A stretch of 64,000 nucleotides of DNA from a virus (IMGVR_UViG_3300045988_170943:128001-192000); one strand, 5' to 3'. Positions 19,224 through 59,656 are shown, counted from the stretch's first letter. The notes: a model not told the origin generated them from the sequence alone. Made by a program: numbers and translations.

Positions 19224-20297
19224 ATGGTGAAGTACCATATCTCTGACGGGGTGGCACGTAAGTGTGACGCAACTAAACGGCCTTGCCCTGTTGGTGCCTC
19301 GCCCAGTGAGCACTACCAGTCTAAGGCGGAGGCATATGCCGCCTATGCTGCGCAGAACGCACACAACCTCTTCGCTCTCGGCACCAACTCTGGCCTGGCT
19401 GCGAAGGTGAAGCGGTTCGTCGCCGTGGGCGGGGTTCTGGCGTCCATGTGCTCGGTGGCGGCCTGTGGGACCATTGACACGGACGAGACCCCGGAGTGGA
19501 AAGCCATTGAGCAGCAGCAGTCTGACGCTCAGGGACAGGCTGATCAGGAGAAGGCCAATGATGGGTACGGCAAGGTCAAGGATGCTGCGAAGAACAAGTG
19601 GGGCAAGGCTAAGGAGAAAGCCGGGAAGGTAGGCCAGGACCTCAAGGAGGCTACCAGCCAGACAGACAGTGGGGGGCCTGGAGGCACCGGCGGCAACAGT
19701 GGGGCAGGCGGCGACGTTTTCTTCCACGGTAAGTCACTGACCCCGACCGCCGAGGAGATCCAGCAGGCGAAGGATGATTTAGCGGGGTTGAAGGTCGCGC
19801 CCGAGAACGATGCCAGCGGCTACAACCGCAAGGAGATGTTCGGTGACTTCGACAGGGGGACGGTTGCTGCGGTCGAGCAGAGGGATGTCACCTACAACGC
19901 CTCTTTCAACGATGACGGTCGAGCAGAGGACGGATCGGCGTTCCGAGACCCCTACACCGGTAAGGTTGTCACAATCGTCAAGGGCAGCAGTCATGACGCC
20001 GACGTGGATCATGGCGTGCCACTGAAAGAAGTTGTCGAGTCAGAGGACCCGGAGCATCCGCTCAGCGCACAGGAGCGGCACCAGATCGCCAACGACATGG
20101 ACAACCTGCAACTGGTCGGGTCCCATGAGAACCGCTCCAAGGGCGATAAGGATCCGGCAACCTACATTCCCTCATATGAGCCCGCCCAGTGCAAGTACAT
20201 CATCTACTATGTGTCGGTCAAGTCGAAGTATCACCTGAGCGTTGACCCTGCTGAGAAGAACAGGATCCAGGAAGTTCTCGTCACGAAGTGCTCATAG
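19224..20297 (+). CDS. Membrane-anchored DUF1524/HNH-like (GmrSD C-terminal-type) nuclease. It starts with the HCCH module, followed by a hydrophobic segment with a lipobox-like VAAC; an alternative lipoprotein start is the GTG near 19411
   Basis: C-terminal ...DVDHGVPL...LQLVGSHENRSKGDKDPATYIP resembles the DUF1524 His-Me finger; N-terminal H-x8-C-x6-C-x8-H. Confidence 0.55.
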   Translation: MVKYHISDGVARKCDATKRPCPVGASPSEHYQSKAEAYAAYAAQNAHNLFALGTNSGLAAKVKRFVAVGGVLASMCSVAACGTIDTDETPEWKAIEQQQSDAQGQADQEKANDGYGKVKDAAKNKWGKAKEKAGKVGQDLKEATSQTDSGGPGGTGGNSGAGGDVFFHGKSLTPTAEEIQQAKDDLAGLKVAPENDASGYNRKEMFGDFDRGTVAAVEQRDVTYNASFNDDGRAEDGSAFRDPYTGKVVTIVKGSSHDADVDHGVPLKEVVESEDPEHPLSAQERHQIANDMDNLQLVGSHENRSKGDKDPATYIPSYEPAQCKYIIYYVSVKSKYHLSVDPAEKNRIQEVLVTKCS

Positions 20298-20356
20298 TGT
20301 GGAGAATCCTCCGCGCCTGCCCGCAACACACGTTAGTCAACACCTGTAGAATAAAG

Positions 20357-20893
20357 TACTCCCGTATGAAAGGACTCACAACATTGGCAACAATCATCAC
20401 CCCAGAAGACGGCACAGACCACAAGGTAGACCTGTTCCTCGCTGGCGGCATCACCAACTGCCCCGACTGGCAGACCGAGGTCACACACATGCTAACCCAC
20501 CTCGACATCAACATCGCCAACCCCAGACGCCCCTATGGGCTGGAGAAGACCGGAGACGAGGCGGCACGACAGATCTCCTGGGAGCACGAGATGCTGGACC
20601 GGGCAGCCGTCACCATGTTCTGGTTCCCGGCCGGAGCGACACAGCCCATCGCCCTGCTGGAACTGGGCAGGAAGATGACCCAGGACCGCCCACTTGTTGT
20701 CGGTACTGACCCCAACTATGAGCGGTCATTCGATGTGCGGCAGCAACTCTGGCTGGAGCGGCGAGAGAAGCCCTACCACCACCTGCCAGACACGGCCCTG
20801 GAGGCGGCGGAGGCGTGCTACAGGGTAAAGGGGAAGTGGCTGCCAGCAGACGCGGCAGTACACATCATGAAACGGGGTCTTAGTGAAAACTAG
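20357..20893 (+). CDS. Nucleoside 2-deoxyribosyltransferase-like (NDT/Rcl-fold) protein (ORF opens at 20288)
   Basis: DLFLAGGIT N-terminal motif and a ...AGATQPIALLELGRKMTQDRPLVV C-terminal motif resemble NDT-like Rossmann proteins; moderate. Confidence 0.4.
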   Translation, partial: YSRMKGLTTLATIITPEDGTDHKVDLFLAGGITNCPDWQTEVTHMLTHLDINIANPRRPYGLEKTGDEAARQISWEHEMLDRAAVTMFWFPAGATQPIALLELGRKMTQDRPLVVGTDPNYERSFDVRQQLWLERREKPYHHLPDTALEAAEACYRVKGKWLPADAAVHIMKRGLSEN

Positions 20894-20957
20894 CGCCTCG
20901 ACACCTGACTATCTCACACCTGCAACACGCCAGAACATTCCCCGAAGGAACCCGCCG

Positions 20958-21359
20958 ATGACTACACGAACACCACCTGCTGCCCCCATTGCGGTCGAGT
21001 GCGTCTCTATCACCGAGATCCCTGGCCGTGACGCGGTGACCGTTCTGAATGAGACCGTGTTCGGGCCGTTACGCTCCGACCCGAGACAGTTCACAGGCAT
21101 GCTGCGCTCATTTTGCACCATGGGGCGCGCCCAGTTAGCGGAGGACATCAGGCGCGCCCCAGCGGATGCACTCGTGCCAGTAAGTGGCGCGAATAGGCTG
21201 GCCGGGGCGGTGATGGAACTGAAACTGTGCCTGACTGAGGGTGGCGACTTTGTTCTCCTGACCCTGTTCGGCGGGAAAGCAGACCCGGCGACGACGTTGC
21301 GTGACGCCCTGGAGCACGCCATCAAGGTACTGAGCGTTGTTGAGGCGGAGTACTCCTGA
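20958..21359 (+). CDS. Hypothetical protein (ORF opens at 20883)
   Basis: ORF. Confidence 0.4.
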   Translation: MTTRTPPAAPIAVECVSITEIPGRDAVTVLNETVFGPLRSDPRQFTGMLRSFCTMGRAQLAEDIRRAPADALVPVSGANRLAGAVMELKLCLTEGGDFVLLTLFGGKADPATTLRDALEHAIKVLSVVEAEYS

Positions 21360-21534
21360 CCCCTGGCCCCCATGGGATCAGATGCTCAGGTCTCTCACAC
21401 CTAGGGCACTCGGATTCTCCCCTGCAAACTGGCTCAACAGGTGTTGACCCTTGCGGTTTGCGTGTACGTATAGTAAAATGCCTGCTAGAGCAACCATACC
21501 CACACCGAAACACCCAGAAAAGAGCCCGACGCCA

Positions 21535-21741
21535 ATGACCAGCAACCAGCCACCAGGCAGCATCTATGTCGTCATCAACGAGAACGGTGACATCAGGACT
21601 GGTGGCGGCTCATCCTCCCGGCCCGCAGTGCACGCCTACACCTCAGAGAAGGAAGCCCGCACCTATGTGAAACGGGCAATGAACTCTTACCGCCCTCCCA
21701 GATACAGGATCGTCGAGTACCGTCTCGCACCCCTGAAGTGA
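21535..21741 (+). CDS. Small hypothetical protein (ORF opens at 21451); a TTGACC...TATAGT promoter-like site lies at 21444-21474
   Basis: ORF with an upstream promoter-like hexamer pair. Confidence 0.35.
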   Translation: MTSNQPPGSIYVVINENGDIRTGGGSSSRPAVHAYTSEKEARTYVKRAMNSYRPPRYRIVEYRLAPLK

Positions 21742-21788
21742 AATACTACTAGGCCGGAAACCAGAGAGTGAAAAAGACAGGTATCTGA

Positions 21789-22859: not shown

Positions 22860-24960
22860 CACTACTGGGGACCTACAGTCGTACCCGACTATATATCGCA
22901 AACACGCAGAAGTCAACCCCTTAAGAGAAATGTGAGCGCACTATCAGCATTCTTTAACACACCATTAAAGATATTCCGTTTCGTTACTTAACATGCGGGG
23001 AGACATGACTCACATATACGTTACGGTAAGATAGCGGGTCATGATAGACTGGACAACATGTTCTTGCAGATGAGGCAACTGGGTTTGAATACGGTCGCCC
23101 TGCCGCGTATTGGTTCTGGGGTGGGTGGCTGTTCTACTGTAGTCTGACGTTGTTACTATTTCTCTACCTGTACTGGCGTGCTTTATTGATCCTGTGTTAA
23201 GATGCACACGTACTACTTCTTTGAGGGAGGCTCACCGGATGCAGTCTAAGACTGTTGTGTCTCGCACGTATCCTCGTAGACCGTATGCTGCGTTCAGTAA
23301 GAGTGGTGAGCCTCTGGATCTCAAGGAGGTTCTGGATGGTATCAGGCGGGATGTGGAACTGGTCTCCTACTATGCTCTGCAAGAGATGACGGAGCAGAAC
23401 CTTGCCCTGGTGATCTACTTCGACAAGTACAAGCCCGCCGAGGCTGGGCGAAGGATGGGACTGTACCTCCCCAGTGAGGTGAAGAAACAATTCAAGAGCG
23501 GCAGTTCCAGATTGGAACGTATGTTCAGAGAACAGGTAGTCGTCAATTTGAGATCCTGGGCCGCCCGAGTCAATGCCACTAACAGGACGTATGATGGTTA
23601 TATTTCGGCCGGGTGGAGGAGAACAGTCAGGAACTCCAAGCCGTCATCTATGCAACCTAGGTTGGCCCTGTCTGCTACAGATAAGGGCTATCACAAGAAC
23701 TTCAGTGTCACACCAGAACGTATCTCTCTTGACATGGTTGTCCAGGGGCGATGGGTGACCTTGCACTTCCCGACACCACCGCAGTTGTTGGAGGATAGTT
23801 GTGAGCCGGGCGTGCCGGACATCTGGGTTAACAAGAACAACAGGGTCATGTTCGGATTCCATGGGAAAACTAATCCAGGTAGGCCGGAGTTCTCCAGCCG
23901 CTATGTTGTTGGCGTGGACGTCGGGGTGACTAACCCGGCTGCTTATGTGGTCTGGGATACCAAGAACAAGGAGATTGTTGAGCAGTCCCTACTTGGGCAG
24001 CGCTCCAGATCGCTGAGTAACAAGATCAAACGCGGGATCAGACAGGTCGCCTCCCTGAAGAGAAAGGGGAGAGATGAGGAGGCCGCTCTTCACAGGACTC
24101 ATCTGTCTAATCGCCGTAAGGAACTGAGCATTCTCGTTGCTCAGGAGATCGCGGACGCGGCCTGGAGGCACGGCAATGCTCTGGTAGTGTTCGAGGATCT
24201 GAGCCATATTAAGAACACCATGAAGTTCGGTCGCTGGTTCAGGGGTGAGGTGTACAGGCGTACTCGGGACATGGTTGAAGCCGACGGCGGCAGGGTCCTC
24301 AAAGTCAATGCGGCCTACACCTCGAAGAGATGTCATGTCTGCCAGTCTGACCTGGACATGAGCGACTACAGTAGCCCCGTGTGTCACTCATGCGACATTA
24401 CCCACCACCGAGACATCAACGCGGCGGCGAACATCGCCCAGCGAGCCAACCATGAGAAGGCGTGCCAAACACGGAAGCGGCACACCACGAAGACGAAGTG
24501 TGTTCGCCGCTCCAAGTGCCGTACGAGACCGCTGAAGCATCCTGGTACGAAGAACCGGCCGACTCCTAAGGCGCCCCAGAACAGACCGAAAACTCTTGTT
24601 TGCTCACCTATCCCTAAGATGGAGGTGAGCAAGGGAATGTGCCCCGCAGAGTCTAGGGTTTCTGCGGTGGACCACGATACGTGGTTTCAGACAACCAGCG
24701 GCACGACGAATCCGAAGGAGAACCTATCTGTTGCAAGTGCAGTAGATGTGGTTTATCTCAAGGAATAGTCATACGCTTGCACTGGGATGAGGTGCTTTAT
24801 ACGATCAAGGAGGCGGCGAAACTACACCCTGGTATTGACGTTGAGGTGTGGGAGTTCTCCGTCAGGTGACCGTCCCTGAACACCCTACTAACATCAGGGC
24901 GGCCTGGGACACCAAACGTCGATATATCATGGTTGACAGGTGATCGGTCGAGACTCACAA
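22860..24960 (+). mobile_element. Solo tnpB (IS605/IS1341-like) element; the ends are not resolvable from sequence alone, so the extent is approximate. An AT-rich segment at 22860-23200 may carry the left end
   Basis: tnpB with no adjacent tnpA; AT-rich upstream patch; the ORF's 3' region probably carries the omega/reRNA. Confidence 0.4.
23194..24768 (+). CDS. tnpB: TnpB (OrfB) RuvC-like RNA-guided nuclease. It has the VGVDVGVTNP RuvC-I segment, a ...FEDLSHIK RuvC-II segment, a CHVCQ...CHSCD zinc finger and HRDINAAANIA RuvC-III, followed by an unusual C-terminal extension of about 115 aa that is basic and Cys/Arg/Lys-rich. The probable start is ATG 23239
   Basis: All RuvC split motifs and the Zn finger read directly. 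Confidence 0.85.
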   Translation: MLRCTRTTSLREAHRMQSKTVVSRTYPRRPYAAFSKSGEPLDLKEVLDGIRRDVELVSYYALQEMTEQNLALVIYFDKYKPAEAGRRMGLYLPSEVKKQFKSGSSRLERMFREQVVVNLRSWAARVNATNRTYDGYISAGWRRTVRNSKPSSMQPRLALSATDKGYHKNFSVTPERISLDMVVQGRWVTLHFPTPPQLLEDSCEPGVPDIWVNKNNRVMFGFHGKTNPGRPEFSSRYVVGVDVGVTNPAAYVVWDTKNKEIVEQSLLGQRSRSLSNKIKRGIRQVASLKRKGRDEEAALHRTHLSNRRKELSILVAQEIADAAWRHGNALVVFEDLSHIKNTMKFGRWFRGEVYRRTRDMVEADGGRVLKVNAAYTSKRCHVCQSDLDMSDYSSPVCHSCDITHHRDINAAANIAQRANHEKACQTRKRHTTKTKCVRRSKCRTRPLKHPGTKNRPTPKAPQNRPKTLVCSPIPKMEVSKGMCPAESRVSAVDHDTWFQTTSGTTNPKENLSVASAVDVVYLKE

Positions 24961-24967: not shown

Positions 24968-25390
24968 TTGGCGCGCATGTATGAGATAGAGGAAGGCACT
25001 GTTGTCGTCGAGTGTGACGGCAGGGTGCTGGCATGGTCTGACGGGGTGTTCACTGGGGACAAGGAGATGCAGAGGTATGCGGCCTTGGCGATCTCCACGA
25101 AGTCCATTGTGACGCTTGAGGGAGCACTGGAGGTGGAGTGCGACGGGGAGACGGCTCTGGGTGCGCTTGGTGCCATGTTCGTGTTCTGCCCTGGCCGTAC
25201 CCATGTTGTCGAGTGTCCTGCCTATGTGAAGGCCCTCCTGGCTAGTGCGCGTACACTGGTCGATTCTGAGGACCCGTCAGCATGGGGCGAACCCGATGAA
25301 GACGACGACAGCCTCGACGACACTGGCCTTAAACCAGACTCCAAGGTTTCTGAGGTCGTTACTGGCTCCACTGAGGGGGATGTTGCCTGA
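24968..25390 (+). CDS. Hypothetical acidic protein (140 aa)
   Basis: ORF; its stop and the next gene's start overlap as TGATG. Confidence 0.5.
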   Translation: MARMYEIEEGTVVVECDGRVLAWSDGVFTGDKEMQRYAALAISTKSIVTLEGALEVECDGETALGALGAMFVFCPGRTHVVECPAYVKALLASARTLVDSEDPSAWGEPDEDDDSLDDTGLKPDSKVSEVVTGSTEGDVA

Positions 25391-27048
25391 TGTGCAGGTC
25401 CATTGAACAGGGTGGTAGGCGTTGCCCTTGCGGTCAGCCGGAGCGTCGTGCAGCGTACCGTCGGGCGCTGAAAGCCAGACGTAAGGCAGAAGCCATGTTG
25501 CAGGTGGCTGTGACCGTCAGCGACACCCCAACAGGCGGCTCCGGGGGCTTGTCGGGAGGGGCCTCCGCGTCAGCAGATGATCTGGTGGACCCGAGTACGC
25601 CAGCGGGCACTGCCACAGATTCAGTAGACGCCACAGGCGTTAGCACTAATGCCGGGTTGACACCACAGGAGAAGTACGCGACATTCGAGTCCGTCAAGGA
25701 ACTGCTCGCCACCCCAGACCGGGACAAGGTGATCGAGGAGTTCGGTGGCGAGGTCAACTTCACCACCCACATTGGTAGCGTTATCGCCGGTGAGGCCATG
25801 GCTCGCGCTGGTATCAACGTTGAGGAGGTGCCCGCCCTCAACCAGCAGTACAAAGAGGACCTGAACAGGCGACGTAAGGAACTCAACGCGGAGCAGGATG
25901 CCGCACTGGACACTATTGCGGAGTTGCGTGCGGCCGCAGAAGACAGGCTAGACCCATACGCCAGGATGAACCCGAAAGAGGTCCGTGAGGCCGCCAAGAA
26001 CGAACCTGAGGTGGTGGCCGCCAGGGAGCACTACGAGAAGTTGTTCAACGAGCACGAGGCCGTCATGAATGAGATCATGAGAGGCGGCGACTACGGACGG
26101 GAGACGATGAAGAAGGCGTCTGACGCCTACATGGAGGTTCTTCAGGAGGTGCGCCCGTTCGGCGGGGACCACGACTGGCACCCCAACAGCCCAAAGAAGG
26201 ACGTGAAAACGTTCAACAATGCTCTTAGACACTACCCGTCCGACTGGATCAGGGCCTCCGCAAAAGACGACTACAAACCTAAGGTAAAGACCACGAAGGT
26301 GCGAGCCCACTACAAGGCCAGGGCGAAACAGACATCCAGGAAGAAGATACCTGTCACCACTATCATAGGCAGAAACGACAGGCCGTCCCCTTCCATCATC
26401 CCCATGCTCAACGCTGACGGGACACCCGTACTTCAGGAGGTCACTGGCCCTGGTGGCGTTGGCATACAGATGGCGCCTGTCGGCCAGTTGGCTACAGTCA
26501 AGAGCACCCTGGTGTCAGCAGAGTGCACAGACGAGTACATGAAGACCATCAAACCAGCCGGTAAGGGGTGGAGCCTGTACCGTGACGAGAACGTAGTGTG
26601 CTGGCGTCGCCCTATGGAGGAGTACCAGACCCGCATATACAGTGCACCGGAACTTCTCACCACAGACAACAAGCGGGAGACCATGCCTGGGGTCACTGAC
26701 CGCGACTCCAAGGCTGTACACGAACTGGCCCACAGGTTCGAGCACGTTAACCCGAAGATCAAGGCCCTGGAGGACGAGTACCTTCGCAGCCGCCTCACCA
26801 AGGATGACCGTCTGGAGCCCATTTACGAGACGTTTGAGGAGGACGACGAGAAGGAGGTTGGTTACCGTGATCACTTCCTGCACCACTACATGGGCAAGGT
26901 GTACGAGGATGGATCCAGAGAGATCATGTCTATGGGTATGGAGGGCCTGTTCGGTGGCCAGTCTGGTGGCCTGATCGGCTTAAGTAATGATGGTAAGGCG
27001 GACACTGGGATGCGTGATTTTGTTCTTGGGACACTCGCGTGGAGGTAA
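25390..27048 (+). CDS. Hypothetical 552-aa protein with an N-terminal Cys-rich knuckle (CRSIEQGGRRCPCG), a long acidic/basic middle and a C-terminal HEXXH (AVHELAHRFEH), i.e. a zincin-like metallopeptidase signature similar to the DUF4157 type
   Basis: HEXXH read directly; family assignment tentative. Confidence 0.5.
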   Translation: MCRSIEQGGRRCPCGQPERRAAYRRALKARRKAEAMLQVAVTVSDTPTGGSGGLSGGASASADDLVDPSTPAGTATDSVDATGVSTNAGLTPQEKYATFESVKELLATPDRDKVIEEFGGEVNFTTHIGSVIAGEAMARAGINVEEVPALNQQYKEDLNRRRKELNAEQDAALDTIAELRAAAEDRLDPYARMNPKEVREAAKNEPEVVAAREHYEKLFNEHEAVMNEIMRGGDYGRETMKKASDAYMEVLQEVRPFGGDHDWHPNSPKKDVKTFNNALRHYPSDWIRASAKDDYKPKVKTTKVRAHYKARAKQTSRKKIPVTTIIGRNDRPSPSIIPMLNADGTPVLQEVTGPGGVGIQMAPVGQLATVKSTLVSAECTDEYMKTIKPAGKGWSLYRDENVVCWRRPMEEYQTRIYSAPELLTTDNKRETMPGVTDRDSKAVHELAHRFEHVNPKIKALEDEYLRSRLTKDDRLEPIYETFEEDDEKEVGYRDHFLHHYMGKVYEDGSREIMSMGMEGLFGGQSGGLIGLSNDGKADTGMRDFVLGTLAWR

Positions 27049-32118: not shown

Positions 32119-34956
32119 CTACTTCTCGGAGTTCTCACCGTCACTGCTGGTGCCACCGTCTGAATCAAGGTCGTCGCCATCCTTGGGCCCGTCAACCTGA
32201 GATGAGGCGCTATCCGTGTCGGTCTCGGTGTCATCAGCGGGTGTGATTTCACCGACCTCGCCTGCATTGTCAGGTGTGTTGTTATCCTCGTGGGCTCCAT
32301 CGTTCGGGGTGTCACTGTCGCCGCTGATAGCGTCACTCAGGGCCGCCTGTACCTCACTACCTGGGTTTACCGGCACGTAGTCGCGCTTCTCCACCTGGAT
32401 TGATAGGGAGTCCTCGCCGTCCACGTGGTCAATGATCACAAGGTCGTCGTCGTCGATGGTGCCGTTGAGGAGTAGGACGGAAGCCTTCGTCGTGCCGGTC
32501 TCCTTCACCAGCCCAATCACTGGGCGGGCTCCGCGCTCAGGGTCGTATCCTTCAGTGGACAGCCACTTCTTCGCATTGTTCGTGATCTCGAACTTGATGC
32601 GGCGGCGAGCCATACGTTTCGTGAACTTGCTCACCTCCTTGTCAATGATCCGGCCCAGGCCCTCCTCGGTGAGAGTGTGGAAGATCACCTGGTTGTCCAG
32701 GCGGTTCAGGAACTCTGGGCGGAAGTGGCCACGGATCGCGTCATTGACGGCCTGAGCCTTCTCCTCCTCACTCAGGGTCGGGTCAATCATGGCCCTGGAG
32801 CCGAGGTTAGACGTCAGGATAATCACTGTGTTGCGGAAGTCAACCCGTTTCCCCTTGCTGTCTGTCAGGTGACCCTCATCAAGGACCTGGAGGAGAACAT
32901 CGAACACCTCCGCGTTAGCCTTCTCCACCTCGTCAAACAGGATCACCGAGTAGGGGCGCTTACGGACAGCCTCAGTGAGGACACCACCCTCATCGTAGCC
33001 CACGTATCCGGGAGGTGCGCCCATGAGTTTCGCAACCGAGTGCTTCTCGGAGAACTCGGACATGTCAATGCGCACCATAGCCTGCTCATCATCGAACAGG
33101 AACTCCGCGAGCGCCTTCGCTGCCTCTGTCTTACCGGTACCGGACGGGCCAGAGAACAGGAAAGACCCGGTGGGGCGGTTCGGGTCCGCCAACCCGGCAC
33201 GCGACACACGGATAGCGTCAGCGATACTGGAAATAGCCTCATCCTGACCGAACAGGCGACCGCCCATGCGCTCCTCAATATGGAGCAGTTTCTCAGCCTC
33301 CTCCTCAAGGACCTTACCTGCCTTGATGCCAGTCTTCGACTCTACGGCACGGGCGATCTCGTTACGGCCTACAGACTCAGCGATCAGGGCGTCATCCAGG
33401 GACTTGACAACCTTGGCGATCTCATTCTCCAGGGACCTGGCCTCAGTCGCGGCTTTCTCGGCGTCCTCAATGTTACCGGCGTCCGCCTCCTCCTGGTAGC
33501 GCGCCTGGGCGTCAGCGAGACGACCCCTGGTTTCATCCAGGTGCTTCTTCGTCTCCTGCTCGCTGGCCCACCTGGCCGTCAGGTCAGCCAGTTCCTCCTC
33601 AGCCTCCACGATCTTGGTGCGCACCTCATCTAGGGCGATGCGAGCCTCAATGGACTCCTGACCCTTCAGGGAGTCGGCGTCGTGGCGGAGGTTTTCAAGG
33701 CCCTGCTCCAGGAAGTAGATACGGTCCGGCTTCGAGTCGATCTCCTGACGCATCTTCGCGGCAGCCGAGTCCAGCAGGTCAATGGCCTTGTCCGGCAGCC
33801 GATCCGCCGGAACATACCGGACAGACATCTCGATAGCGGCAGCCAGGGCGTCGTCACTGATTTGCACCCGATGAAAATCCTGATACCCTGGGACGAGACC
33901 ACGCAGAATCATGAGCGTGTCACGGTCTGACGGCTCCTCCACATCTACCTGCTGAAGGTAGCGGGACACGGACTCCTTCTCGATGTGGATACGGTATTTG
34001 TCGTTCGTGGTCTCACCAATGATGAGGATGTCTTCACGGACGAGGAAACCTCGAAGCGTGTCGGCGGCAGCGGACCCAGAGTTCAGGGCGTGGATACCCT
34101 CGATAGCGAGAACAATTTCACCGTTAGAGTCCTTCACCTCGTTCAGGAGGCCAACGAAGTTCTTCTCAAACTCTCCCTGAGAGGCAGAACTGGAACGCAT
34201 TGACGTCAGGTCCAGCAGCAGGATACGCCTACCGGGCAGGAACTCGACACTGCCATCATATGCTCTCTGGGCGAGAGAGAAGATGACGGAGGTCTTACCA
34301 ACGCCAGGGTCCCCAACTAGGACAGGAGTGTTCTTGCTGCGGCGGGACAGTAGTTGGACAACCTCACGGATCTCACGGTCACGGCCAATGACGACAGGAA
34401 GATCACCCTTGCTGGCCTTCTCGGTCAGATCAATGCAGAACCGGCCAGTCAGGCCACCATCCAGAGGCTTACTGATCCTGCTGCTGGCGGCTGCGGATGA
34501 CGTGGAAACGGCGGCAGAAGTTGGGGTAGGGGAGGGCGTCGCGCTTACGATGCGGATCCCAGCGCGCTGAAACTCCCCCAGGTTGTCACACAAGGACTTA
34601 ACGAGGTCTAGGACAGCGATCACGCCCGCACGGTCGTCGTCAGCGGCGTACTTTTTTGCGTCCCGGACGATCTTAAGCACCTCGGGGCCGACAGTCACGT
34701 TCACGTTCACAGGTGTGGGGGCAACTTGCTTCCCAGACTCGTTAGTGACGACACGCCGGTTTGCCTCCTCAATGAGGGCGTCAATGTGGGCCATGTCCAC
34801 GTGCGCCTCAATCAGGGCGGCCAGAACGACTGGTTGGTTTTTCATTGTCGCCACAAGGTGGTGAGGCAGGATCTCACGGTACCCTTGCTTGCGGGCTAGA
34901 TCCATGGACTCCTGTAGCCATTTCTCGCCCCCACTGGACGCTACACTCTTAGCCAC
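32119..34956 (-). CDS. ClpB-like double-ring AAA+ disaggregase. It has a Clp_N domain, NBD1 (GDPGVGKTS), a coiled-coil M-domain and NBD2 (GPSGTGKTE, sensor/arginine finger and D2-small domain). An unusual acidic C-terminal tail of about 110 aa follows
   Basis: Both Walker A/B sets, the M-domain and ClpB-signature regions read directly. Confidence 0.85.
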   Translation of the reverse strand: MAKSVASSGGEKWLQESMDLARKQGYREILPHHLVATMKNQPVVLAALIEAHVDMAHIDALIEEANRRVVTNESGKQVAPTPVNVNVTVGPEVLKIVRDAKKYAADDDRAGVIAVLDLVKSLCDNLGEFQRAGIRIVSATPSPTPTSAAVSTSSAAASSRISKPLDGGLTGRFCIDLTEKASKGDLPVVIGRDREIREVVQLLSRRSKNTPVLVGDPGVGKTSVIFSLAQRAYDGSVEFLPGRRILLLDLTSMRSSSASQGEFEKNFVGLLNEVKDSNGEIVLAIEGIHALNSGSAAADTLRGFLVREDILIIGETTNDKYRIHIEKESVSRYLQQVDVEEPSDRDTLMILRGLVPGYQDFHRVQISDDALAAAIEMSVRYVPADRLPDKAIDLLDSAAAKMRQEIDSKPDRIYFLEQGLENLRHDADSLKGQESIEARIALDEVRTKIVEAEEELADLTARWASEQETKKHLDETRGRLADAQARYQEEADAGNIEDAEKAATEARSLENEIAKVVKSLDDALIAESVGRNEIARAVESKTGIKAGKVLEEEAEKLLHIEERMGGRLFGQDEAISSIADAIRVSRAGLADPNRPTGSFLFSGPSGTGKTEAAKALAEFLFDDEQAMVRIDMSEFSEKHSVAKLMGAPPGYVGYDEGGVLTEAVRKRPYSVILFDEVEKANAEVFDVLLQVLDEGHLTDSKGKRVDFRNTVIILTSNLGSRAMIDPTLSEEEKAQAVNDAIRGHFRPEFLNRLDNQVIFHTLTEEGLGRIIDKEVSKFTKRMARRRIKFEITNNAKKWLSTEGYDPERGARPVIGLVKETGTTKASVLLLNGTIDDDDLVIIDHVDGEDSLSIQVEKRDYVPVNPGSEVQAALSDAISGDSDTPNDGAHEDNNTPDNAGEVGEITPADDTETDTDSASSQVDGPKDGDDLDSDGGTSSDGENSEK

Positions 34957-37473: not shown

Positions 37474-37633
37474 GTACCTCTCCCCACCTACCCTCGGCCC
37501 CTTTCTGTCCTACCAACCTAGTGATATTCGCCGCATTGAAGAAAACCGCCACCCCAGCCCCTCACTGAGGTGAGCAACCCCACAGGTGACGGCAGACACA
37601 AAAGACGAAACCTCCTTTTGGGAAGGGTTATGT

Positions 37634-46160: not shown

Positions 46161-46304
46161 TTCGCGCTCGGTTTCTATGTTAGGTTGGGCGCACGGAGGG
46201 CACCCCTCTTGAACCTGGGGGCACGAGCCTGTGCCTCCTTCGTCTCTACACTGGGCCAATATTCCAGTCGCACAATCTTCCGGCCAAACACAAGGCGGTA
46301 CCGC

Positions 46305-47561
46305 ATGTTCACTATTCTTCTATGGCTGTTGGGCGTAGCCGCCTTCATTGTCGTACTCCTCGCCAGTATTGGTCTGCACGAGGCGGGGCACATGGTTGCC
46401 GCCAGATGGTGTGGCCTGTATGTCCCTAAGTTCTTCGTTGGGTTCGGCCGCACCATCTGGTCGTTCAAACGGGGCGGCACCGAGTATGGACTGAAAGCCA
46501 TCCCTCTGGGTGGGTTTGTCAGTATCGAGGACCCGACCCGGCCGGAGGGTGAAGACGACAGGATGCTGCTGTCTCACGTACACCCCCTGAAACGGATCCT
46601 TGTGTTCATTGCCGGTCCGCTGGTGAACCTTGCGCTCGCGGTCGTGATCCTCATGGCCGGGCTCGTTGGCCAGCCGTACCGAGCCACCACGACCACGGTG
46701 CAGAACGTGACCGTATGTGAGCACACAGACGCGGAGCACACTCAACTGGTTGCCCCATGTGGAGCATACGCTGCTGGAATCTTCAAGGGTGACACGATCA
46801 CCTCAGTCAACGGGCGTCGAGTATCCACGCTGGCACAGGTTAGGCAGGCTCTCCAGGAAGTGCCGGACGGCCAGAAGGTGCCCGTGACGGTACACCGCGT
46901 GTTCCCCAATGGGGGCGGTGAGCGTGACTTCAACAAGATGGCTCGCGTCGAGGGAGGCACTATCGGGTTGACCGTGAAGACAGAGACCCGTCGGCTCAGT
47001 GTCGCAGAGTCAGCGAAGGTGCTGGGTGCGGTGAGTGTGCAACAGATTCAGGCCATCCCAAGCCTTGTGGGGCAGATCCCGGCGGTATGGCGCAACATCA
47101 TCGGGCAGGGCGATGGTAAGCCCGCGGCCACCTCCATCATCGCGGTAGGGAAGACGTATGGGGATGTGGCCGCGAATACTGGCCCTACTGCGTCATCTGG
47201 GTTCAGTGAGGTTGGTCGCGTTCGTACCCTTGTGTTGTTTAGTGGCCTGGTGAACCTGAGCCTGTTCGTCATGAATGCCTTGTTGCCGATGCTTCCCTTG
47301 GACTCGGGTCGTATCCTGATTGCGTTGGTTGACTTGGTGCGCATGGGGTGGGCTAGGTTCACCAGGGTGGTGTCGCGTGGTATGCGTGCGATGCGTGGGC
47401 GCCTTGATGCTGGCAGTGATGGGGGTGGCGGCTGGGTGTACCGGCCGTTGAGCAGTAAGGTCGTGAACACTCTGACGGTGGTGACATCTGTGCCCTTGTT
47501 CCTGTTTTTCATCATGCTTGTGGTGTCGGATGTGATGTCCACGATCCGGGGAAGCATCTAA
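46305..47561 (+). CDS. rseP: M50 site-2 protease (RseP/Rip1 family): HEAGHMVAARWCG zinc site in TM1, PDZ-like middle, LDGG-type downstream motif; ORF opens at 46185
   Basis: HExxH within a TM helix plus the overall RseP layout. Confidence 0.75.
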   Translation: MFTILLWLLGVAAFIVVLLASIGLHEAGHMVAARWCGLYVPKFFVGFGRTIWSFKRGGTEYGLKAIPLGGFVSIEDPTRPEGEDDRMLLSHVHPLKRILVFIAGPLVNLALAVVILMAGLVGQPYRATTTTVQNVTVCEHTDAEHTQLVAPCGAYAAGIFKGDTITSVNGRRVSTLAQVRQALQEVPDGQKVPVTVHRVFPNGGGERDFNKMARVEGGTIGLTVKTETRRLSVAESAKVLGAVSVQQIQAIPSLVGQIPAVWRNIIGQGDGKPAATSIIAVGKTYGDVAANTGPTASSGFSEVGRVRTLVLFSGLVNLSLFVMNALLPMLPLDSGRILIALVDLVRMGWARFTRVVSRGMRAMRGRLDAGSDGGGGWVYRPLSSKVVNTLTVVTSVPLFLFFIMLVVSDVMSTIRGSI

Positions 47562-48778: not shown

Positions 48779-49528
48779 GTGTCAATCTTGAAGCCAGTGA
48801 GGGGGCACAGAATGGATCCTAAGGGCTACGAGGGCCTGTCGAGGGGTGAGCGAGCCAATCTTGACCGGGCCGTGCACCGGTGGGCCACTGAAGGAGGAGA
48901 GGCCGGACCCGGGGTGGTATTTGAGGTAACCGCTAAGATACTCACCGTCGTGCATAATTCCCTCAGACGCCAGGTCATTGATAAGGGTATACTGGATGCT
49001 GCCGCAAATAATGGGTGGGCCTCCATGGACAATGATGCCCTACTGAATCGGTTAAAGACGACCCCGTGCTATGAGGTCGCCCCAGAGTGCCGCCTGGGGG
49101 TTGGTACCCGTCTTGACAAGGAGGGCGTGTGTATCGCGTTCGAGTCGGCAGAACTGAGGATGTGGTTCACTAAGACGGAACGTGAGGCTCTTGGTGACTC
49201 TATAACAGACATTGAAGATGTTATTGAGGAGGTCGCCAGGGCGGACACGGAACGTAAGTACACGATGACCCGGTTCGTTGGCTCATTGGGAGCATGGGCG
49301 CTTGAGAACGGGTCTCGGGACGTATTCTTTAATTTCGTGTCTCATAGTGTGACAAACCAGGACCTTTTCATCAAGATCATGGGTAGCCAGAAGGCTCGGC
49401 AGGTGATCATGGATCATTGCTCTGAGGCATCTCACTGCGAGATTGACAAGTTGCTTAATCTTCATCAGGTTTTCTCCACTGAAGGTGAGGAACCCAAGGA
49501 AGAAGAGTACGACTACCCCTTGGGGTGA
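48779..49528 (+). CDS. Hypothetical protein (249 aa)
   Basis: ORF. Confidence 0.5.
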   Translation: MSILKPVRGHRMDPKGYEGLSRGERANLDRAVHRWATEGGEAGPGVVFEVTAKILTVVHNSLRRQVIDKGILDAAANNGWASMDNDALLNRLKTTPCYEVAPECRLGVGTRLDKEGVCIAFESAELRMWFTKTEREALGDSITDIEDVIEEVARADTERKYTMTRFVGSLGAWALENGSRDVFFNFVSHSVTNQDLFIKIMGSQKARQVIMDHCSEASHCEIDKLLNLHQVFSTEGEEPKEEEYDYPLG

Positions 49529-49693
49529 AACGCCACATCTACTGTATCTCCAATAGATAGGTTCTCCTTCAGGGCTGTCGTACCGGGGATGGTCCACGAG
49601 TTAGAAACCATCCTGTGAATGCGAGGCTGGTTTCTTCACACCACAGGAGAACTTGACTCGCACAGTTCTTTGACCCTAGCGGAGGAGCCCGCC

Positions 49694-50656
49694 ATGTCGA
49701 AACCGTTGAAGAAGATGCACCAGAGTGACCGCGGAGAGTGGGTCGAGTGTGGGGCAGATAAACGTGCGTGCCCGAAGAAAGGCCCCAATGGGGAACCCGC
49801 TGAGCACATTTGGGCGGAGAACCCGGAGCATGCCGCAGAGATATCCGCAGCCAGGCAGCACCCAGACAGCATGTTCCCCGCCACCTCCCAGCAGTCCACT
49901 AAGCCCAGTGATGGCACCCCACTCCCTGGAGGATTCGACTTCAGGGGTAAGAGCGACTGGCAGATCGTGGATGCCTGGGACAGCAGCATGAAGTCAATCA
50001 GGGAGGGACGCTACGACTACGCCGACATCGCTGTGGACGACGACAGTGACGGCATGGCGGAATGGGCGCACAATCTCGGCTACCAGGCCAAGGCAATAGG
50101 TGACAACAAGGTCCGCCTATACAACACTGCTGAACTGCCCTCCCATGAGGGATTCTCCTCTGAAGACATGTACAACAGTGTCGAATGGCACACTGCACAG
50201 TGTCGAGAACTGGGTATCCCCAGAGTGTGGGAGGGGCGCTCTGACATATACCTGCACATGCTCGCCAGCGACAACCCCAGACACAAGGATGTCCTCTTTA
50301 AGGAGATGCATGACCATGTTGACAAGACTGCTACCAGGTACCTGAGTGACGAGTCCACGAGCAGGGAGGCTGGACTAAGAGCAGAAGCGGCAGACAGGGT
50401 ACAGTCGGGGCGGATCTCCACTGAGCCACCAGTGAGGACCACGTTCCATGAAGGGCCAGATGGGGAGCGTGTACCGGATAGTTTTGGTGACTGGAACCAT
50501 GAGGTGGAACGAATCTGGGAGTCGTCACCCAAGGACCGTCACGCATTAAAGAATCGGGCACCGGTCCTCATTGACGCACTCCGTCGCGGTGACGCTAAAA
50601 CCTTCAGGGAGCAGATGGACGCCCTGAAGAAGGAGACAACCGACATCAACTGGTGA
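49694..50656 (+). CDS. Hypothetical protein with an N-terminal HCCH module (ORF opens at 49619)
   Basis: GGAGGA RBS 9 nt upstream of ATG 49694; H-x9-C-x6-CP-x11-H. Confidence 0.5.
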   Translation: MSKPLKKMHQSDRGEWVECGADKRACPKKGPNGEPAEHIWAENPEHAAEISAARQHPDSMFPATSQQSTKPSDGTPLPGGFDFRGKSDWQIVDAWDSSMKSIREGRYDYADIAVDDDSDGMAEWAHNLGYQAKAIGDNKVRLYNTAELPSHEGFSSEDMYNSVEWHTAQCRELGIPRVWEGRSDIYLHMLASDNPRHKDVLFKEMHDHVDKTATRYLSDESTSREAGLRAEAADRVQSGRISTEPPVRTTFHEGPDGERVPDSFGDWNHEVERIWESSPKDRHALKNRAPVLIDALRRGDAKTFREQMDALKKETTDINW

Positions 50657-54422: not shown

Positions 54423-54608
54423 ACTAGAATTCGTTCCAGCAAACACCGGAGAGCCCCTTGCGGTTTCTTACCCGCCCCGCCCGTCCACTGGACACACCGC
54501 CATATATGACGTTTATTGTTCCTTGTTTAGAAAACGTGTGAGAACAGGAGAAAACACCCCATAGCATCATGCCCCACAAGCGTGCGTGGGGCGCGGAGGT
54601 TATTCACG

Positions 54609-56231
54609 ATGGTAGCAGTCAGGTGGCACTTCAACCCGGACACGGGTCAGACCGGCAGGTGCAGGGCGGAGATCAAGTGCGACTTCGGTGAGGGCACCCC
54701 ACACTATGAGACCAAGGAAGCCGCTCAGAGGGGATACGAGGAGTATCAGGCCATCATTGACGGATGGGTGAGCACACTGGGGCGTGAAGCCGTCTATGGA
54801 CCAGAAGACGACGCCACCAAGATCACCCAAGGTGCCGAGCAGGTGCAGGACGACTCAGGTGAGGAGCACGCTAGTGACACTGGGCAAATGGTCGCTAATG
54901 TGGGCGGCGACTCGCAACCCAGTCAGGGTGACCGGAAGGTGCAGGATCCTGGGGATGAGGAGGCCCGGATTGAGGCCCTGGACCAGCAGGCGTTTGAGGA
55001 GCATGACGGTCCAGACACGTTCGCCGTCCCTGCCGGTGCTGTAGAGGATGCCAGGAAACTAATCGACCGGGCCAACAAGCGCCTGGAGCGGGCTGGGATC
55101 AGTGAACGCTTTAAAATCCTGGAGGAGACTCCATTCTCGTACACGACTGTCAACGACCGCGGGTTCAAGGAGCACCGCAACTATGTGGCTCTGCGACTGA
55201 ACCACCCGTCCATATCCTACTCCGGGTACCGGTTCCTCGCAGTTGTTGACAAGGCAGACAGCGGACTGGTAGTGCGCGGAAGTGAGGAACTAGGCGGCTG
55301 GAAGCCAGAGAAGCAAGTCTGCGAGCACTGTGGGAAGAACATGCGACGCTCCAAGACCTACCTTGTGGAGGACAAGGAGGGCAACAGGCTCCAGGTTGGG
55401 TCTACGTGCATGAAAGCATACCTGGGGGTGAAGCCGGAGGGCCTGTGGGCTGTCGGCACGAACCCCCTGAACAAACTGGATCGCAGTAACCGCGGATATG
55501 GGGGCCTTGACATTGATAACAGGAGTGCTATCGCCTATGCGCTCGCCTTGTCTGAGAATGGCCACCACTTCGTGTCCAAGTCCATGTGGGAACGTGACTA
55601 CAGGTACAAGGAAACCACCAAGGATCTTGTGTATCAGGCTATGTATGGGACAGGCAATGACCGCTGGTCCGCTAAGGTCGCACAGAAGGCTGAGGAGTAC
55701 ATTCGGTCTGGCCGGGCGGACGAAGTTCTTGAGCAGGCTCGCAACGTAGAAGGGGATAGCGACTACTGCGAGAACATGCGCACACTGGCTTCAGGTAAGT
55801 ACATCCACAAGAAGCACCTCGGAATGCTGGTGTCCGCTGTCGCTATTGACGCCAAGAACCGGCGAGACGCTGAGAAGAAGAAGCGCAAGGAGGAGGAACT
55901 GAAGTCCTGGACTCCTGGCTATGCTGCTAACGTTGGGGACAACCTGAAGGGAAGGCAGATGAGGGTGGTTCACAACCGCATCGTTGACGGGTACGACTAC
56001 CATGGCAACTCGATCAGGAAGTCCGTCGTCACTCTCCGGGACAAGGAGGGTCACCAGGTCACATGGTTCGCATCCCGCCCCATCAGGATCAAGGAAGGCG
56101 AGGACATCACGCTGGGATCCGCGAAGGTCAAGAAGCATGGCCAGTATGAGGGTGTAGACCAGACTGTGATCTCAAACGTGCGCGTACCAGGCGAGATGAG
56201 CCAGAAGGACTGGAATGACTACTACGGGTGA
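54609..56231 (+). CDS. Hypothetical 540-aa protein with an N-terminal HCCH module plus a second internal C-x2-C...C knuckle (ORF opens at 54582)
   Basis: GGAGG RBS; H-x10-C-x5-C-x7-H. Confidence 0.5.
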   Translation: MVAVRWHFNPDTGQTGRCRAEIKCDFGEGTPHYETKEAAQRGYEEYQAIIDGWVSTLGREAVYGPEDDATKITQGAEQVQDDSGEEHASDTGQMVANVGGDSQPSQGDRKVQDPGDEEARIEALDQQAFEEHDGPDTFAVPAGAVEDARKLIDRANKRLERAGISERFKILEETPFSYTTVNDRGFKEHRNYVALRLNHPSISYSGYRFLAVVDKADSGLVVRGSEELGGWKPEKQVCEHCGKNMRRSKTYLVEDKEGNRLQVGSTCMKAYLGVKPEGLWAVGTNPLNKLDRSNRGYGGLDIDNRSAIAYALALSENGHHFVSKSMWERDYRYKETTKDLVYQAMYGTGNDRWSAKVAQKAEEYIRSGRADEVLEQARNVEGDSDYCENMRTLASGKYIHKKHLGMLVSAVAIDAKNRRDAEKKKRKEEELKSWTPGYAANVGDNLKGRQMRVVHNRIVDGYDYHGNSIRKSVVTLRDKEGHQVTWFASRPIRIKEGEDITLGSAKVKKHGQYEGVDQTVISNVRVPGEMSQKDWNDYYG

Positions 56232-56684: not shown

Positions 56685-56950
56685 CGCGAAAATGATTGAC
56701 GGGCAGAAGGCGACTGGTGTAGTATGGCCCGTATGATTATTTTGAGGATCATCGAGAAAATCCTGACCTACCGCGCCCACCGAGCCGTAAGGGCAGGCAA
56801 TCAGGCATGGTTCACGGAACAGCAAGCCATGTTCCGTGATAGACGAGGATGATCTAAGGCAGGAGAGTCCTCCCGTGCGCCCAGTGTGATGCATATCATC
56901 TGGGTGCTTTTGCTGTCATTGACATATGTCTGCTATCCTGCATCCAGTCA

Positions 56951-57769: not shown

Positions 57770-57970
57770 CGTTCCATCCAGTGTTACCTCCTCCTGCACT
57801 GGCCGATTCTCGCGGGGCACCTCTCTGACCCAATGCCGCATCCCGTCGCACAGGTGTACTCATGCTGGACGGAAGCCGGAAAACTTGCCGTCCTGCCGTG
57901 ATATTCCCGCCGCAAGCAAGAGCCAGGTATCTGTTCCACCCTCAAAAACGCAGCAGGAAGACATGGTGAG

Positions 57971-58312
57971 ATGAAGGCCAGCAAGAGCAATGTAGCGTCC
58001 CTAGCAAGTATCGTTCGAGACAAGGTGAATCCTGTGACGGTTAGCGACACCAACCTGATCGCCTACTACCTGGATGACATCACGGTCCTATTTTCCCCGA
58101 AGGGCAACCAGGACGCCTTCTATGGGGTCGTTGTGGACGTGCTTGGGCGCACATTCCACATCGCCGCCAACCTCAAGGTGCTTATTGAGGACGACGCCAC
58201 AACCGGTGATGAGGAGCCCGCAATCTATGAGATCGAGGAGCCCTCACTGATCGAGTTCGTGAACAACTTCCTGTCTCTTCGCGTCCACCTGTTAGAAAAA
58301 CTGGGTGTATAG
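57971..58312 (+). CDS. Hypothetical protein (113 aa)
   Basis: ORF. Confidence 0.4.
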   Translation: MKASKSNVASLASIVRDKVNPVTVSDTNLIAYYLDDITVLFSPKGNQDAFYGVVVDVLGRTFHIAANLKVLIEDDATTGDEEPAIYEIEEPSLIEFVNNFLSLRVHLLEKLGV

Positions 58313-58354
58313 CCAGTAAACCACTCACCAGCACCCTGGAGGCGATGACAGAAC

Positions 58355-59656
58355 ATGGCAGGCGCAACGAAATACCACATCGCACCGCAAGGGCCGATGT
58401 TCTGTGAGGCCGAGATCCGGGAGTGCCCATACGCCCAAGCGGGCGGCAAACACTACGGAACCTTCGAGAAGGCCCAGCAGGTGTGGCGTGAGCAGATGGT
58501 AGAGAAGTTCGGGGAACTGGACACCCAAGGAACAAACCCCGAGCAACGCAGAACAGCCGCCGAAGCCATGCTGGACATACTGGAAAGAGACCACGACTTC
58601 CAAAAGAGGATGATCCAGTACAGGAACCGTGAGGCTGTAATCGCGTCCCTGAAGAAGAAGATAGCCGACGGAGGAGATCAGAAAGCCTTACAGCAGATGA
58701 AGGCGATTCACAACATGCCTCCCGTGCCGCCACCCCCCGGCAACCTTGACCTTTCCGTACTGCCCCCTCCGCCTCCGGCACAGCAGGGCAAGTCTCAGGA
58801 CGCAGCAGTAGAACAAGCACCAGGGGTACCGCCTACACACACAGAAGGAGCCCCCTTAGAAACACAGCCTGGGGCACTGCCCTTTCCTGATCATGCGCTC
58901 ACCCTGGACGGCCACCCGCTTCCCCCTCCGCCTCCTGGGAACCAGATGCCGCCACAGCAAGAGCACCTAGCAGAGCAGCCACCGAGAATCCCGGTCATGG
59001 TTGGTGACGGTGCTGGTGTTGGCCGTAAGCCTCCGCTGCGAGAACGTTTCAGAGGCATGTTCAAGGGAATCCGCATAGCAGCCATGGGGCGGGTACGTCG
59101 TCTTGGTAACTCTCAGGGTGACCGTCTTAGCCGCCACCAGGTGTCTACGATGAGTGATACTAGAGCCAGGCGACCACTAACGCCCGCACAGGTACGCAGA
59201 CAGCGACGCATGGATGCTTTCGCGCGCGGTGCAGCCCAGAAGGCAGTCGCGGCAGAAAAGGCCATCAAAGACGCCTACAACACTCCCGGGAAGACAGTCT
59301 ACAAGAGACCTGCCGCCGTGCAGATAGGGGACGTGGACCTCAGGTACGGTAAGGTGGTAGGGGTCATTCAGCAGAGTTTCGGAAACAGGGTTATCCAGTT
59401 CCAGAGGGGTGACAACAGCACCGTTGCGCTTAGACTGAACCACGATCACACGTTACACATTCAGGGTGAGTCCAAGAGGGAAAGAGTGGAACGTAGCCCT
59501 ATCTTCCGTGGCGCGAAGCGGGCCTACAAGGAGGTTCATTGGATTCTGACTGCCCCGCCGCCCCGCTACGACAAGTATGATGAGGCGTGGCGGAACACCT
59601 CATCTTCAAGGGCTCACCAGCAGAACGGGCGTCGATCAGTAGCGCACGAATCCTGA
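58355..59656 (+). CDS. Hypothetical 433-aa protein: N-terminal HCCH module, then a poly-proline (PPPPG) rich linker, then a basic C-terminal region
   Basis: GGAGG RBS; H-x8-C-x6-CP-x8-H. Confidence 0.5.
   Translation: MAGATKYHIAPQGPMFCEAEIRECPYAQAGGKHYGTFEKAQQVWREQMVEKFGELDTQGTNPEQRRTAAEAMLDILERDHDFQKRMIQYRNREAVIASLKKKIADGGDQKALQQMKAIHNMPPVPPPPGNLDLSVLPPPPPAQQGKSQDAAVEQAPGVPPTHTEGAPLETQPGALPFPDHALTLDGHPLPPPPPGNQMPPQQEHLAEQPPRIPVMVGDGAGVGRKPPLRERFRGMFKGIRIAAMGRVRRLGNSQGDRLSRHQVSTMSDTRARRPLTPAQVRRQRRMDAFARGAAQKAVAAEKAIKDAYNTPGKTVYKRPAAVQIGDVDLRYGKVVGVIQQSFGNRVIQFQRGDNSTVALRLNHDHTLHIQGESKRERVERSPIFRGAKRAYKEVHWILTAPPPRYDKYDEAWRNTSSSRAHQQNGRRSVAHES

Follow-up and report, generated by a model that had tools for sequence, protein, structure and literature searches.

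A 64,000-nucleotide (nt) stretch of viral DNA, IMGVR_UViG_3300045988_170943:128001-192000 (hereafter the window, meaning this whole stretch), raises the question of why four of its proteins, which do not resemble each other over most of their length, begin with one and the same module of about 45 amino acids (aa). The window has a GC content of 57%, and no near match to its DNA was found among GenBank phages. The four module-bearing open reading frames (ORFs), named below by their first position, all lie on the + strand, and their N-termini carry the following copies:

19224-19364, + strand: module copy 1, 47 aa, MVKYHISDGVARKCDATKRPCPVGASPSEHYQSKAEAYAAYAAQNAH, N-terminus of ORF 19224-20297
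49694-49864, + strand: module copy 2, divergent, 57 aa, MSKPLKKMHQSDRGEWVECGADKRACPKKGPNGEPAEHIW..., N-terminus of ORF 49694-50656
54609-54755, + strand: module copy 3, 49 aa, MVAVRWHFNPDTGQTGRCRAEIKCDFGEGTPHYETKEAAQRGYEEYQAI, N-terminus of ORF 54609-56231
58355-58504, + strand: module copy 4, 50 aa, MAGATKYHIAPQGPMFCEAEIRECPYAQAGGKHYGTFEKAQQVWREQMVE, N-terminus of ORF 58355-59656

Each ORF is preceded by a ribosome-binding site, GGAGG- or AAGGGG-like, that ends about 8-15 nt 5' of the ATG, and near-identical metagenomic proteins (P0003, P0005, P0006 and P0156) begin at the same residue, which confirms the four starts as they had been placed in a first-pass annotation of the window. A six-frame search with the pattern H-x6-12-C-x4-7-C-x5-13-H[YIWFL] matched the four module N-termini and only two other places, both non-genic.

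The module and its family

The first-pass annotation held that the four proteins share a common N-terminal module, and sequences from outside the window bear this out. Statistics within the window were uneven: profiles built with one copy left out retrieved ORF 19224 at E 1.8e-6 and ORF 58355 at E 5.5e-5, and ORFs 54609 and 49694 at E 0.32 and 0.58, each being still the best match outside the training set. A profile of the four window modules, run without a word filter against 1.84 billion representative proteins, collected 1282 protein clusters at E <= 1e-3, while word-indexed protein searches with module alignments returned near-identical fragments only. A second profile, made of 144 outside members and no window sequence, was scored against the six-frame translation of the window and recovered ORF 54609 (63 bits, E 1e-18), ORF 19224 (59 bits, E 3.5e-17), ORF 58355 (51 bits, E 1e-14) and the divergent ORF 49694 (14.7 bits, E 0.0019). 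Since this outside-only profile recovers the window copies, it settles the uneven within-window statistics, and the family is real. Scored as an isolated module, the ORF 49694 copy reached 18.8 bits against 10.7 bits for the best of 1000 shuffles, and for none of the four modules did any of 1000 shuffles come near the real score, which rules out chance resemblance.

Alignment of 148 modules showed five invariant residues (H5, C14, A16, C21 and H30 in the numbering of ORF 19224) and a near-invariant A37, at a mean column identity of 40% and with the consensus xxKYHIxPxTGxPxxCxAxxRxCPxGxxxEHYx(S/T)KEEAxxAYE. The divergent copy of ORF 49694, whose start is the one confirmed by P0003, retains H, C, A, C and H. 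In the same 148 sequences the single H, C, C and H ligands are separated by 8-10, 5-6 and 5-13 residues. The invariant His and Cys residues probably hold one metal ion, most likely Zn2+, as judged from their conservation. In none of the 148 sequences do two ligands form a CxxC or CxxH knuckle, the ligands being single, and we therefore rejected both a zinc knuckle (CCHC, CX2CX4HX4C) and a zinc ribbon; the earlier description of the module as an HCCH zinc-knuckle-like element was wrong about the knuckle. The same ligand order, His, Cys, Cys, His, occurs in the HCCH zinc motif of HIV-1 Vif, also a viral protein, which recruits a host partner. The Vif spacing is H-x5-C-x17-18-C-x3-5-H, however, as compared with H-x8-10-C-x5-6-C-x5-13-H in the module, the predicted fold is another one, and the two are unrelated.

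AlphaFold2, run with the 148-sequence alignment, folds the module of ORF 19224 confidently (mean pLDDT 84.5) into strands at residues 3-7 and 10-14 and a helix at residues 34-46, with the second Cys on the loop between hairpin and helix. The module is thus predicted to be an independently folding end-piece in which a beta-hairpin and an alpha-helix flank the ligand loop. It measures about 45 residues, and about 58 when a weakly conserved tail is counted in; counted from the last His, this tail has hydrophobic positions at +15, +19 and +22 and a basic patch at +24 to +27. Copies at C-termini stop 21-31 residues past the last His, matching the end of this tail, and stand-alone modules of 54-65 aa also occur. 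The mean net charge is 0.1 and the median isoelectric point (pI) 6.7, and the helix has conserved acidic positions.

Three further ORFs of the window recall the module. ORF 24968, suspected by the first-pass annotation to be a degenerate copy, scored -1.8 bits, less than many of the shuffles made from it, and does not belong to the family; ORF 25390 (MCRSIEQGGRRCPCG...) was considered as a copy and was not found by the profile. The third, a 96-aa ORF at 21451-21741 (+ strand) containing ...GSIYVVINENGDIRTGGGSSSRPAVHAYTSEKEARTYVKRAM..., resembles the hairpin and helix of the module minus the cysteines, and its profile E of about 2 is not significant.

The module appears to be an undescribed domain family that is present in none of the libraries tested, in agreement with the earlier remark that it is not a recognised named domain. 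The module region of the window proteins was unmatched in Pfam, NCBIfam and PHROGs, and a scan of 145 carriers, one by one, against the same three libraries gave no family common to all and none that covers the module. Ten module-only sequences compared with Pfam at E <= 10 matched DUF1508 alone (E 0.098); kinship with DUF1508/YegP was dismissed at an hhalign probability of 0.3% against a sequence taken to be E. coli YegP. No sequence match to the module was found in the PDB, nor did any solved structure match convincingly, and the only convincing matches in BFVD were seven uncharacterised proteins, all from one uncultured phage. In the literature searched, which covered jumbo-phage comparative genomics, the polyvalent-proteins paper and the combination of HCCH and bacteriophage, no description of the module was found.

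One of the closest parallels is Bacillus phage G, in which zinc ribbons have expanded to about 35 (Iyer et al. 2021, PMC7824862). There, too, a small Cys-containing domain has been multiplied manyfold in one huge phage genome; the phage G domains, in contrast, are CPxC...CPxxC ribbons in small stand-alone proteins. The two are not the same domain: over the initial 50 kb of phage G, a region that includes the cited zinc-ribbon example and several paralogues, the module profile gave no match.

The module is confined to very large phages and is nearly absent from bacterial genomes. Relatives of the ORF 54609 protein at 94-95% identity lie on IMG/VR contigs of 147, 248 and 394 kb, the last of these being IMGVR_UViG_3300008363_000089, a 95% relative of the window, and on a 411 kb contig, and IMG/VR module searches gave matches on contigs of 261-437 kb. 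The samples that contain these phages are human-associated. A degenerate module DNA pattern matched 11 times among 2.9 million IMG/VR contigs, in all cases on contigs of 197-398 kb. Conversely, searches of 50,697 GenBank phage records by tblastn with the ORF 19224 module, the consensus and six concatenated diverse modules found nothing even at E <= 1, and a peptide-pattern scan of 185,579 species genomes yielded one locus, on a 7.6 kb contig of a metagenome-assembled genome, the patterns being narrow and the test correspondingly weak.

Carriers co-occur within the same elements, a point on which the first-pass annotation had raised the question, with up to 9 module genes in 21 kb (locus L008). 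There are 5 copies in 20 kb of L005, 5 in 11.5 kb of L028 (one of the C-terminal type), and 5 and 6 in L031 and L033, often in tandem. L008 belongs to a contig of 828,236 base pairs (bp) (JGI 3300062451, Ga0540622_0000002) and L032 to one of 670,635 bp (JGI 3300045450, Ga0456060_0000005). Both contigs are phage-like in gene content: most genes have no family, module genes form a tandem array, and ClpS, Macro, GmrSD_N, M23 peptidase and SIR2 are encoded as well. To our knowledge the 828 kb contig, if it is one phage genome, would exceed the largest published phage genomes.

The upstream DNA motif

The strongest evidence that the module genes belong together is a DNA motif that precedes them, a coupling that is new and goes beyond the earlier observation. 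A common block, TTAGAAA, is found in the upstream regions of all four window genes:

19156-19163, + strand: motif GTTAGAAA, 68 nt 5' of the ATG of ORF 19224
49600-49607, + strand: motif GTTAGAAA, 94 nt 5' of the ATG of ORF 49694
54526-54533, + strand: motif TTTAGAAA, 83 nt 5' of the ATG of ORF 54609
58291-58298, + strand: motif GTTAGAAA, 64 nt 5' of the ATG of ORF 58355, within the 3' end of ORF 57971-58312

Over both strands of the 64 kb, KTTAGAAA occurs 5 times against 0.87 expected, a number that none of 100 shuffles reached, and 4 of the 5 sites lie on the coding strand, 64-94 nt 5' of the four module genes. The fifth (44895-44902, - strand) falls within ORF 44732-45538 on the opposite strand; no module ORF follows it, and it is probably due to chance. 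The relaxed pattern [TA]TAGA[ATG]A was present 10-125 nt upstream of 4/4 module genes in the window versus 0/51 other ORFs (Fisher p = 2.9e-6).

The association extends to other phages. In the 21 kb of L008, TTAGA[AT]A occurs eight times, seven of them 24-42 nt 5' of module genes. Pooling six loci, the motif stands before 21/23 module genes versus 4/124 other ORFs (p = 2e-19). In three fresh loci, for which the pattern was fixed beforehand, it was found before 9/13 module genes versus 4/66 others (p = 2e-6); of the four module genes that lack it, three stand downstream in a single operon. The motif also precedes a gene with a C-terminal module, which ties the association to the presence of the domain rather than to a 5' cassette.

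A G usually precedes the motif, giving G[TA]TAGA[ATG]A, and several sites come after a terminator hairpin. Sites lie between 14 and 94 nt from the ATG, the shortest distance being compatible with leaderless transcripts. We infer that the motif is an extended -10-like promoter element without a -35 box that defines a dedicated promoter class. A consensus scan for a sigma-70-type promoter at the motif sites found none, no Rfam family or tRNA overlaps these sites, and hairpins common to the regions downstream of the four motifs, viewed by eye, were unconvincing.

Relatives of ORF 49694 keep the motif and the sequence downstream of it and differ upstream of the motif. At 49503-49570 (- strand), 30 nt upstream of the TTAGAAA of ORF 49694, there is a 68-nt copy, 78% identical, of 24714-24778 (+ strand), the 3' end region of the TnpB gene 23194-24768. 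The copy is shared by L015 and L001, L014 differs, and this looks like an insertion polymorphism beside the motif.

Carriers and the possible role of the module

Among the best 148 hits, the module begins within residues 1-8 in 139 and lies at the extreme C-terminus in 8, the remaining hit being a false positive; apart from the latter no internal copies were seen. To the question, raised in the first-pass annotation, of whether homologs carry it only at the N-termini of diverse cargo, the answer is yes for the great majority and no for the C-terminal copies. The latter include a family of about 300 aa (L028 6001-6936 and L030 2103-3071; P0025, P0052, P0056, P0080 and P0110) with the signature MSxNRENTVWQSxDGSWNIGFYDY...WDVEY...GANPGG, which sits within tandem arrays of N-terminal-type genes and whose N-terminal domain has no family match.

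The cargo is indeed diverse. By blastp, the four window proteins show no detectable similarity to one another past the module, as the first-pass annotation had stated. Sporadic Pfam matches among the 145 scanned carriers were to ADPrib_exo_Tox, Zeta_toxin, PolyA_pol/CCA, GmrSD_C and LRV, and PHROGs added a polynucleotide-kinase family; most cargo is without any family. In ORF 58355-59656 the C-terminal half is Pro-rich and basic.

In ORF 54609 the module is followed by a disordered acidic linker (aa 52-114), a stretch of about 60 residues that AlphaFold2 models at pLDDT < 50 between the folded module and the confident cargo, and then by the cargo itself, which matches phrog_2319 and forms a five-stranded OB barrel. 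Homologues of this cargo in cultured Gordonia, Rhodococcus and Vibrio phages start at the conserved core and have no module, whereas 16/19 metagenomic homologues carry it.

In ORF 19224 the cargo scores 22.8 bits (E 9.4e-5) with Pfam GmrSD_C (DUF1524, an HNH-type nuclease), for which the cut-off is 23, and one of the 145 scanned carriers matches the same family at E 3e-7; the nuclease assignment made earlier for ORF 19224 is thus borderline. A further element stands between its module and cargo:

19401-19466 (approximate), + strand: lipoprotein-type signal peptide, lipobox VAAC|G, KD19 hydropathy 1.88, directly after the ORF 19224 module

The module-bearing homologues P0130 and P0135 have the same basic stretch, hydrophobic stretch and [LV][AS][AS]C, the lipoboxes of the three proteins being VAAC, LVAC and LSAC.

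Module-bearing homologues of the ORF 54609, 19224 and 58355 types share 30-42% cargo identity (32% for P0068, a homologue of ORF 58355) across phages of 35-57% GC. Since the same fusions have been kept between such distant phages, they are old and stable and not recent shuffles. The earlier proposal of a shared, mobile tag consequently survives in part: the module is a separable terminal unit, tethered by a linker, absent from some cargo homologues and present on many carriers per genome, and mobility is the part that the data do not support.

What, then, would such a unit do? With moderate confidence we read it as a recognition handle that is tethered by a linker and shared by the products of a single phage regulon. 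This reading accounts for a terminal metal-site domain on a flexible tether, for unrelated cargo, for many carriers per genome and for a private conserved motif. The carrier genes would form one transcription class, marked by the upstream G[TA]TAGA[ATG]A, and the flexibly tethered metal-site end-domain would serve diverse, co-expressed and fast-evolving proteins as a common handle. Through it the regulon products may engage one shared partner, among them the OB-fold DNA-binding protein, the HNH-type nuclease, ADP-ribosyltransferases, a zeta-toxin kinase, a CCA-adding enzyme and many proteins of no known role. The partner would more likely be a protein than a nucleic acid, because the module is neutral in charge and its conserved helix is acidic.

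Several points weigh against a handle. A paralogous family whose C-terminal parts have diverged past recognition would also share its N-terminus; the module-less homologues from cultured phages argue against this for one family. Metal binding is deduced from conservation. In the ORF 19224 family, with its conserved lipoprotein signal peptide directly after the module, the mature nuclease would be exported and severed from the module, which fits poorly with a handle that travels with its cargo. With respect to the motif, the degenerate pattern was refined on some of the loci later counted, the three-fresh-loci test alone being free of this; the motif test was uninformative in the AT-rich loci L003, L004 and L006; and the motif could mark a broad temporal class that includes, for instance, structural genes beyond the stretches read.

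An alternative that we consider unlikely, though the most probable of the rivals, is that the module docks proteins to a receptor on the capsid interior, portal or scaffold, for packaging and injection along with the DNA; in that case the TAGA motif would act as a late promoter. Precedents would be the T4 capsid-targeting sequence (CTS) of the internal proteins and Alt, an unfolded peptide of about 10 residues that the prohead protease removes, and MuF, a large head-morphogenesis domain found on polymorphic toxins of temperate phages. As in these systems, a constant N-terminal part precedes unrelated and variable effectors, several per genome and including ADP-ribosyltransferases. The module, in contrast, is a His/Cys domain with a predicted fold and a length of about 45 aa, unrelated in sequence to both and sometimes C-terminal. 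The terminal position on varied cargo (within the first eight residues in 139/148, as in the packaging tags), the flexible linker, the effector-like character of some cargo (ADP-ribosyltransferase, zeta toxin, nuclease), the many carriers per genome, the limitation to phages with very large capsids and the dedicated promoter class would all suit a virion tag. However, the proteins of the ORF 19224 family are lipoprotein precursors and would have their mature part exported instead of packaged, which argues against one universal packaging role. Module genes also lie amid replication and nucleotide-metabolism genes or in tandem single-gene units, both more typical of early genes, and no capsid or terminase genes, sought as a check on the late-promoter idea, were found in the loci examined. 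Furthermore, what comes after the module is a weak basic tail, with no conserved cleavage motif.

The tight link between motif and domain could also reflect feedback, which we regard as quite unlikely: the module would bind the reader of the TAGA promoter (a phage sigma-like protein or RNA polymerase) or the operator, and the accumulating products would switch the class off. This would explain why DNA motif and domain are strictly linked across phages of 35-58% GC, the gene with a C-terminal module included, why stand-alone modules of 54-65 aa occur, and why the module can act irrespective of the final location of its cargo. The ORF 19224 architecture, a cytoplasmic metal-binding N-terminal domain followed by a membrane segment and an outside domain, has the layout of a membrane anti-sigma factor, and the window encodes an M50/PDZ site-2-type protease (46185-47561), a class that cleaves such factors. 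CsfB is reported to be a small zinc-binding anti-sigma factor (PMC5890618). The ZAS membrane anti-sigma factors resemble the carriers in having a small N-terminal cytoplasmic metal-binding domain, in the ORF 19224 family likewise followed by a membrane segment and an outside domain, and the module, similarly, is tied to one promoter class. Their HxxxCxxC motif is nevertheless absent from our alignment and their helical fold is missing from the module; moreover, most carriers are soluble, a hydrophobic segment being present in 3/147. A sigma factor was found neither in the window nor in the other loci read, the neutral charge speaks against operator binding, and a single regulator would suffice, with no obvious need for at least 10 proteins each bearing the module. 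A specific form of this idea, which we hold to be improbable, makes domain and motif the two parts of a single control circuit peculiar to huge phages: each TAGA-promoter product would bear a metal-binding end-piece that binds the promoter-reading factor, and their combined output would titrate the activator of the regulon and so set when infection enters its next phase. The ORF 19224 type, anchored in the membrane, would then behave as a classical anti-sigma factor.

We likewise assign a low probability to the module being a zinc finger that binds nucleic acid and thereby recruits enzymes to DNA, RNA or tRNA. Some cargos do act on nucleic acids (the OB fold, the GmrSD_C nuclease, the CCA-adding enzyme and the polynucleotide kinase), and there is a basic patch 24-27 residues past the last His. 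The module as a whole, however, has a mean net charge near 0, a pI of 6.7 and a conserved acidic helix, and resembles no known nucleic-acid-binding finger; the OB-fold cargo binds DNA already in its module-less homologues, and in the lipoprotein family module and nuclease would come to lie on opposite sides of the membrane.

Still more improbable, in our view, is that there is no tag at all and that the carriers are one old paralogous family, in which a metal-binding N-terminal core was kept for folding or expression while the rest diverged and the motif was inherited by duplication. Tandem neighbours with alignable cargo (L008 11368/12553 at 50% and L005 8928/9995 at 35%) are what such a history would leave. 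It is contradicted by the clearly different origins of the cargo (the phrog_2319 OB fold with its module-less homologues, GmrSD_C, ADP-ribosyltransferase, zeta toxin and CCA-adding enzyme), among which a common fold is already largely lacking, by the existence of C-terminal modules and by the disordered tether.

Chance likeness of four N-termini that bear Cys and His, suggested by the weak pairwise and leave-one-out scores of ORFs 54609 and 49694 within the window, is already refuted by the outside-only profile (E 1e-14 to 1e-18 for three copies and 0.0019 for the fourth), by shuffles that never reach the real scores and by 1282 outside clusters with the same invariant residues.

Genes of huge phages (200-800 kb) mostly have no known function, and the restriction of this domain to such phages, together with its coupling to a DNA motif, is new. 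At least 1282 protein clusters are tied together by two independent marks, a His/Cys end-domain and an upstream motif, by which a list of orphan genes becomes one definable regulon that includes toxin-like enzymes and DNA-binding proteins. If the module is a handle, its partner would reveal how huge phages organise an effector class, and the module would provide a portable tag for the system; if it mediates feedback, it would represent a new regulatory design, a regulon-wide feedback at the protein level without described precedent. The domain can be used now as a family model for the annotation of huge phages, and its presence marks contigs of this phage group.

Neighbouring genes and hints at the host

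At one end of the window lies a complete sortase-dependent pilus set (1025-11656), an unusual locus for a phage-like genome:

1025-2668, + strand: pilin with GramPos_pilinD1, SpaA and an LPXTG anchor
2829-10697, + strand: 2622-aa protein with BspA-type LRR_5 repeats and seven SpaA domains
10709-11656, + strand: sortase

The window also encodes an unusual set of host-like regulators, located at 32119-34956 (- strand), 46185-47561, 41971-43917, 39024-39707 and 37586-38317 (all + strand) and comprising a ClpB/ClpC-like double AAA+ ATPase, the M50 site-2-type protease with PDZ, a protein kinase, a PP2C phosphatase and a VWA protein. The LPXTG pilin, the sortase, the serine/threonine kinase and the PP2C phosphatase indicate a Gram-positive host, and an actinobacterial one would fit the GC content of 57%.

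The 552-aa protein at 25390-27048 (+ strand), already mentioned as a candidate copy, has a Cys-rich N-terminus that differs from the module (MCRSIEQGGRRCPCG) and also an HExxH motif (AVHELAHRFEH) in a region that matches PHROG 'minor head protein' families, and may be a zincin-type peptidase of the phage polyvalent-protein kind (PMC5512222). TnpB/Cas12f-like ORFs are present at 23194-24768 (+ strand) and 40459-41901 (+ strand, Cas12f1-like_TNB), the second of them preceded by a serine recombinase with a MerR-type helix-turn-helix (39867-40466), which is an IS607-type arrangement. A DnaE-type polymerase of 1340 aa (59883-63905, + strand) contains, by eye, two putative intein-like inserts, CVPAGTLIED...VTHNC and CLHGNTEVL...VSHNS, and L001, a noisy relative, has DNA_pol3_alpha fragments at the corresponding position.

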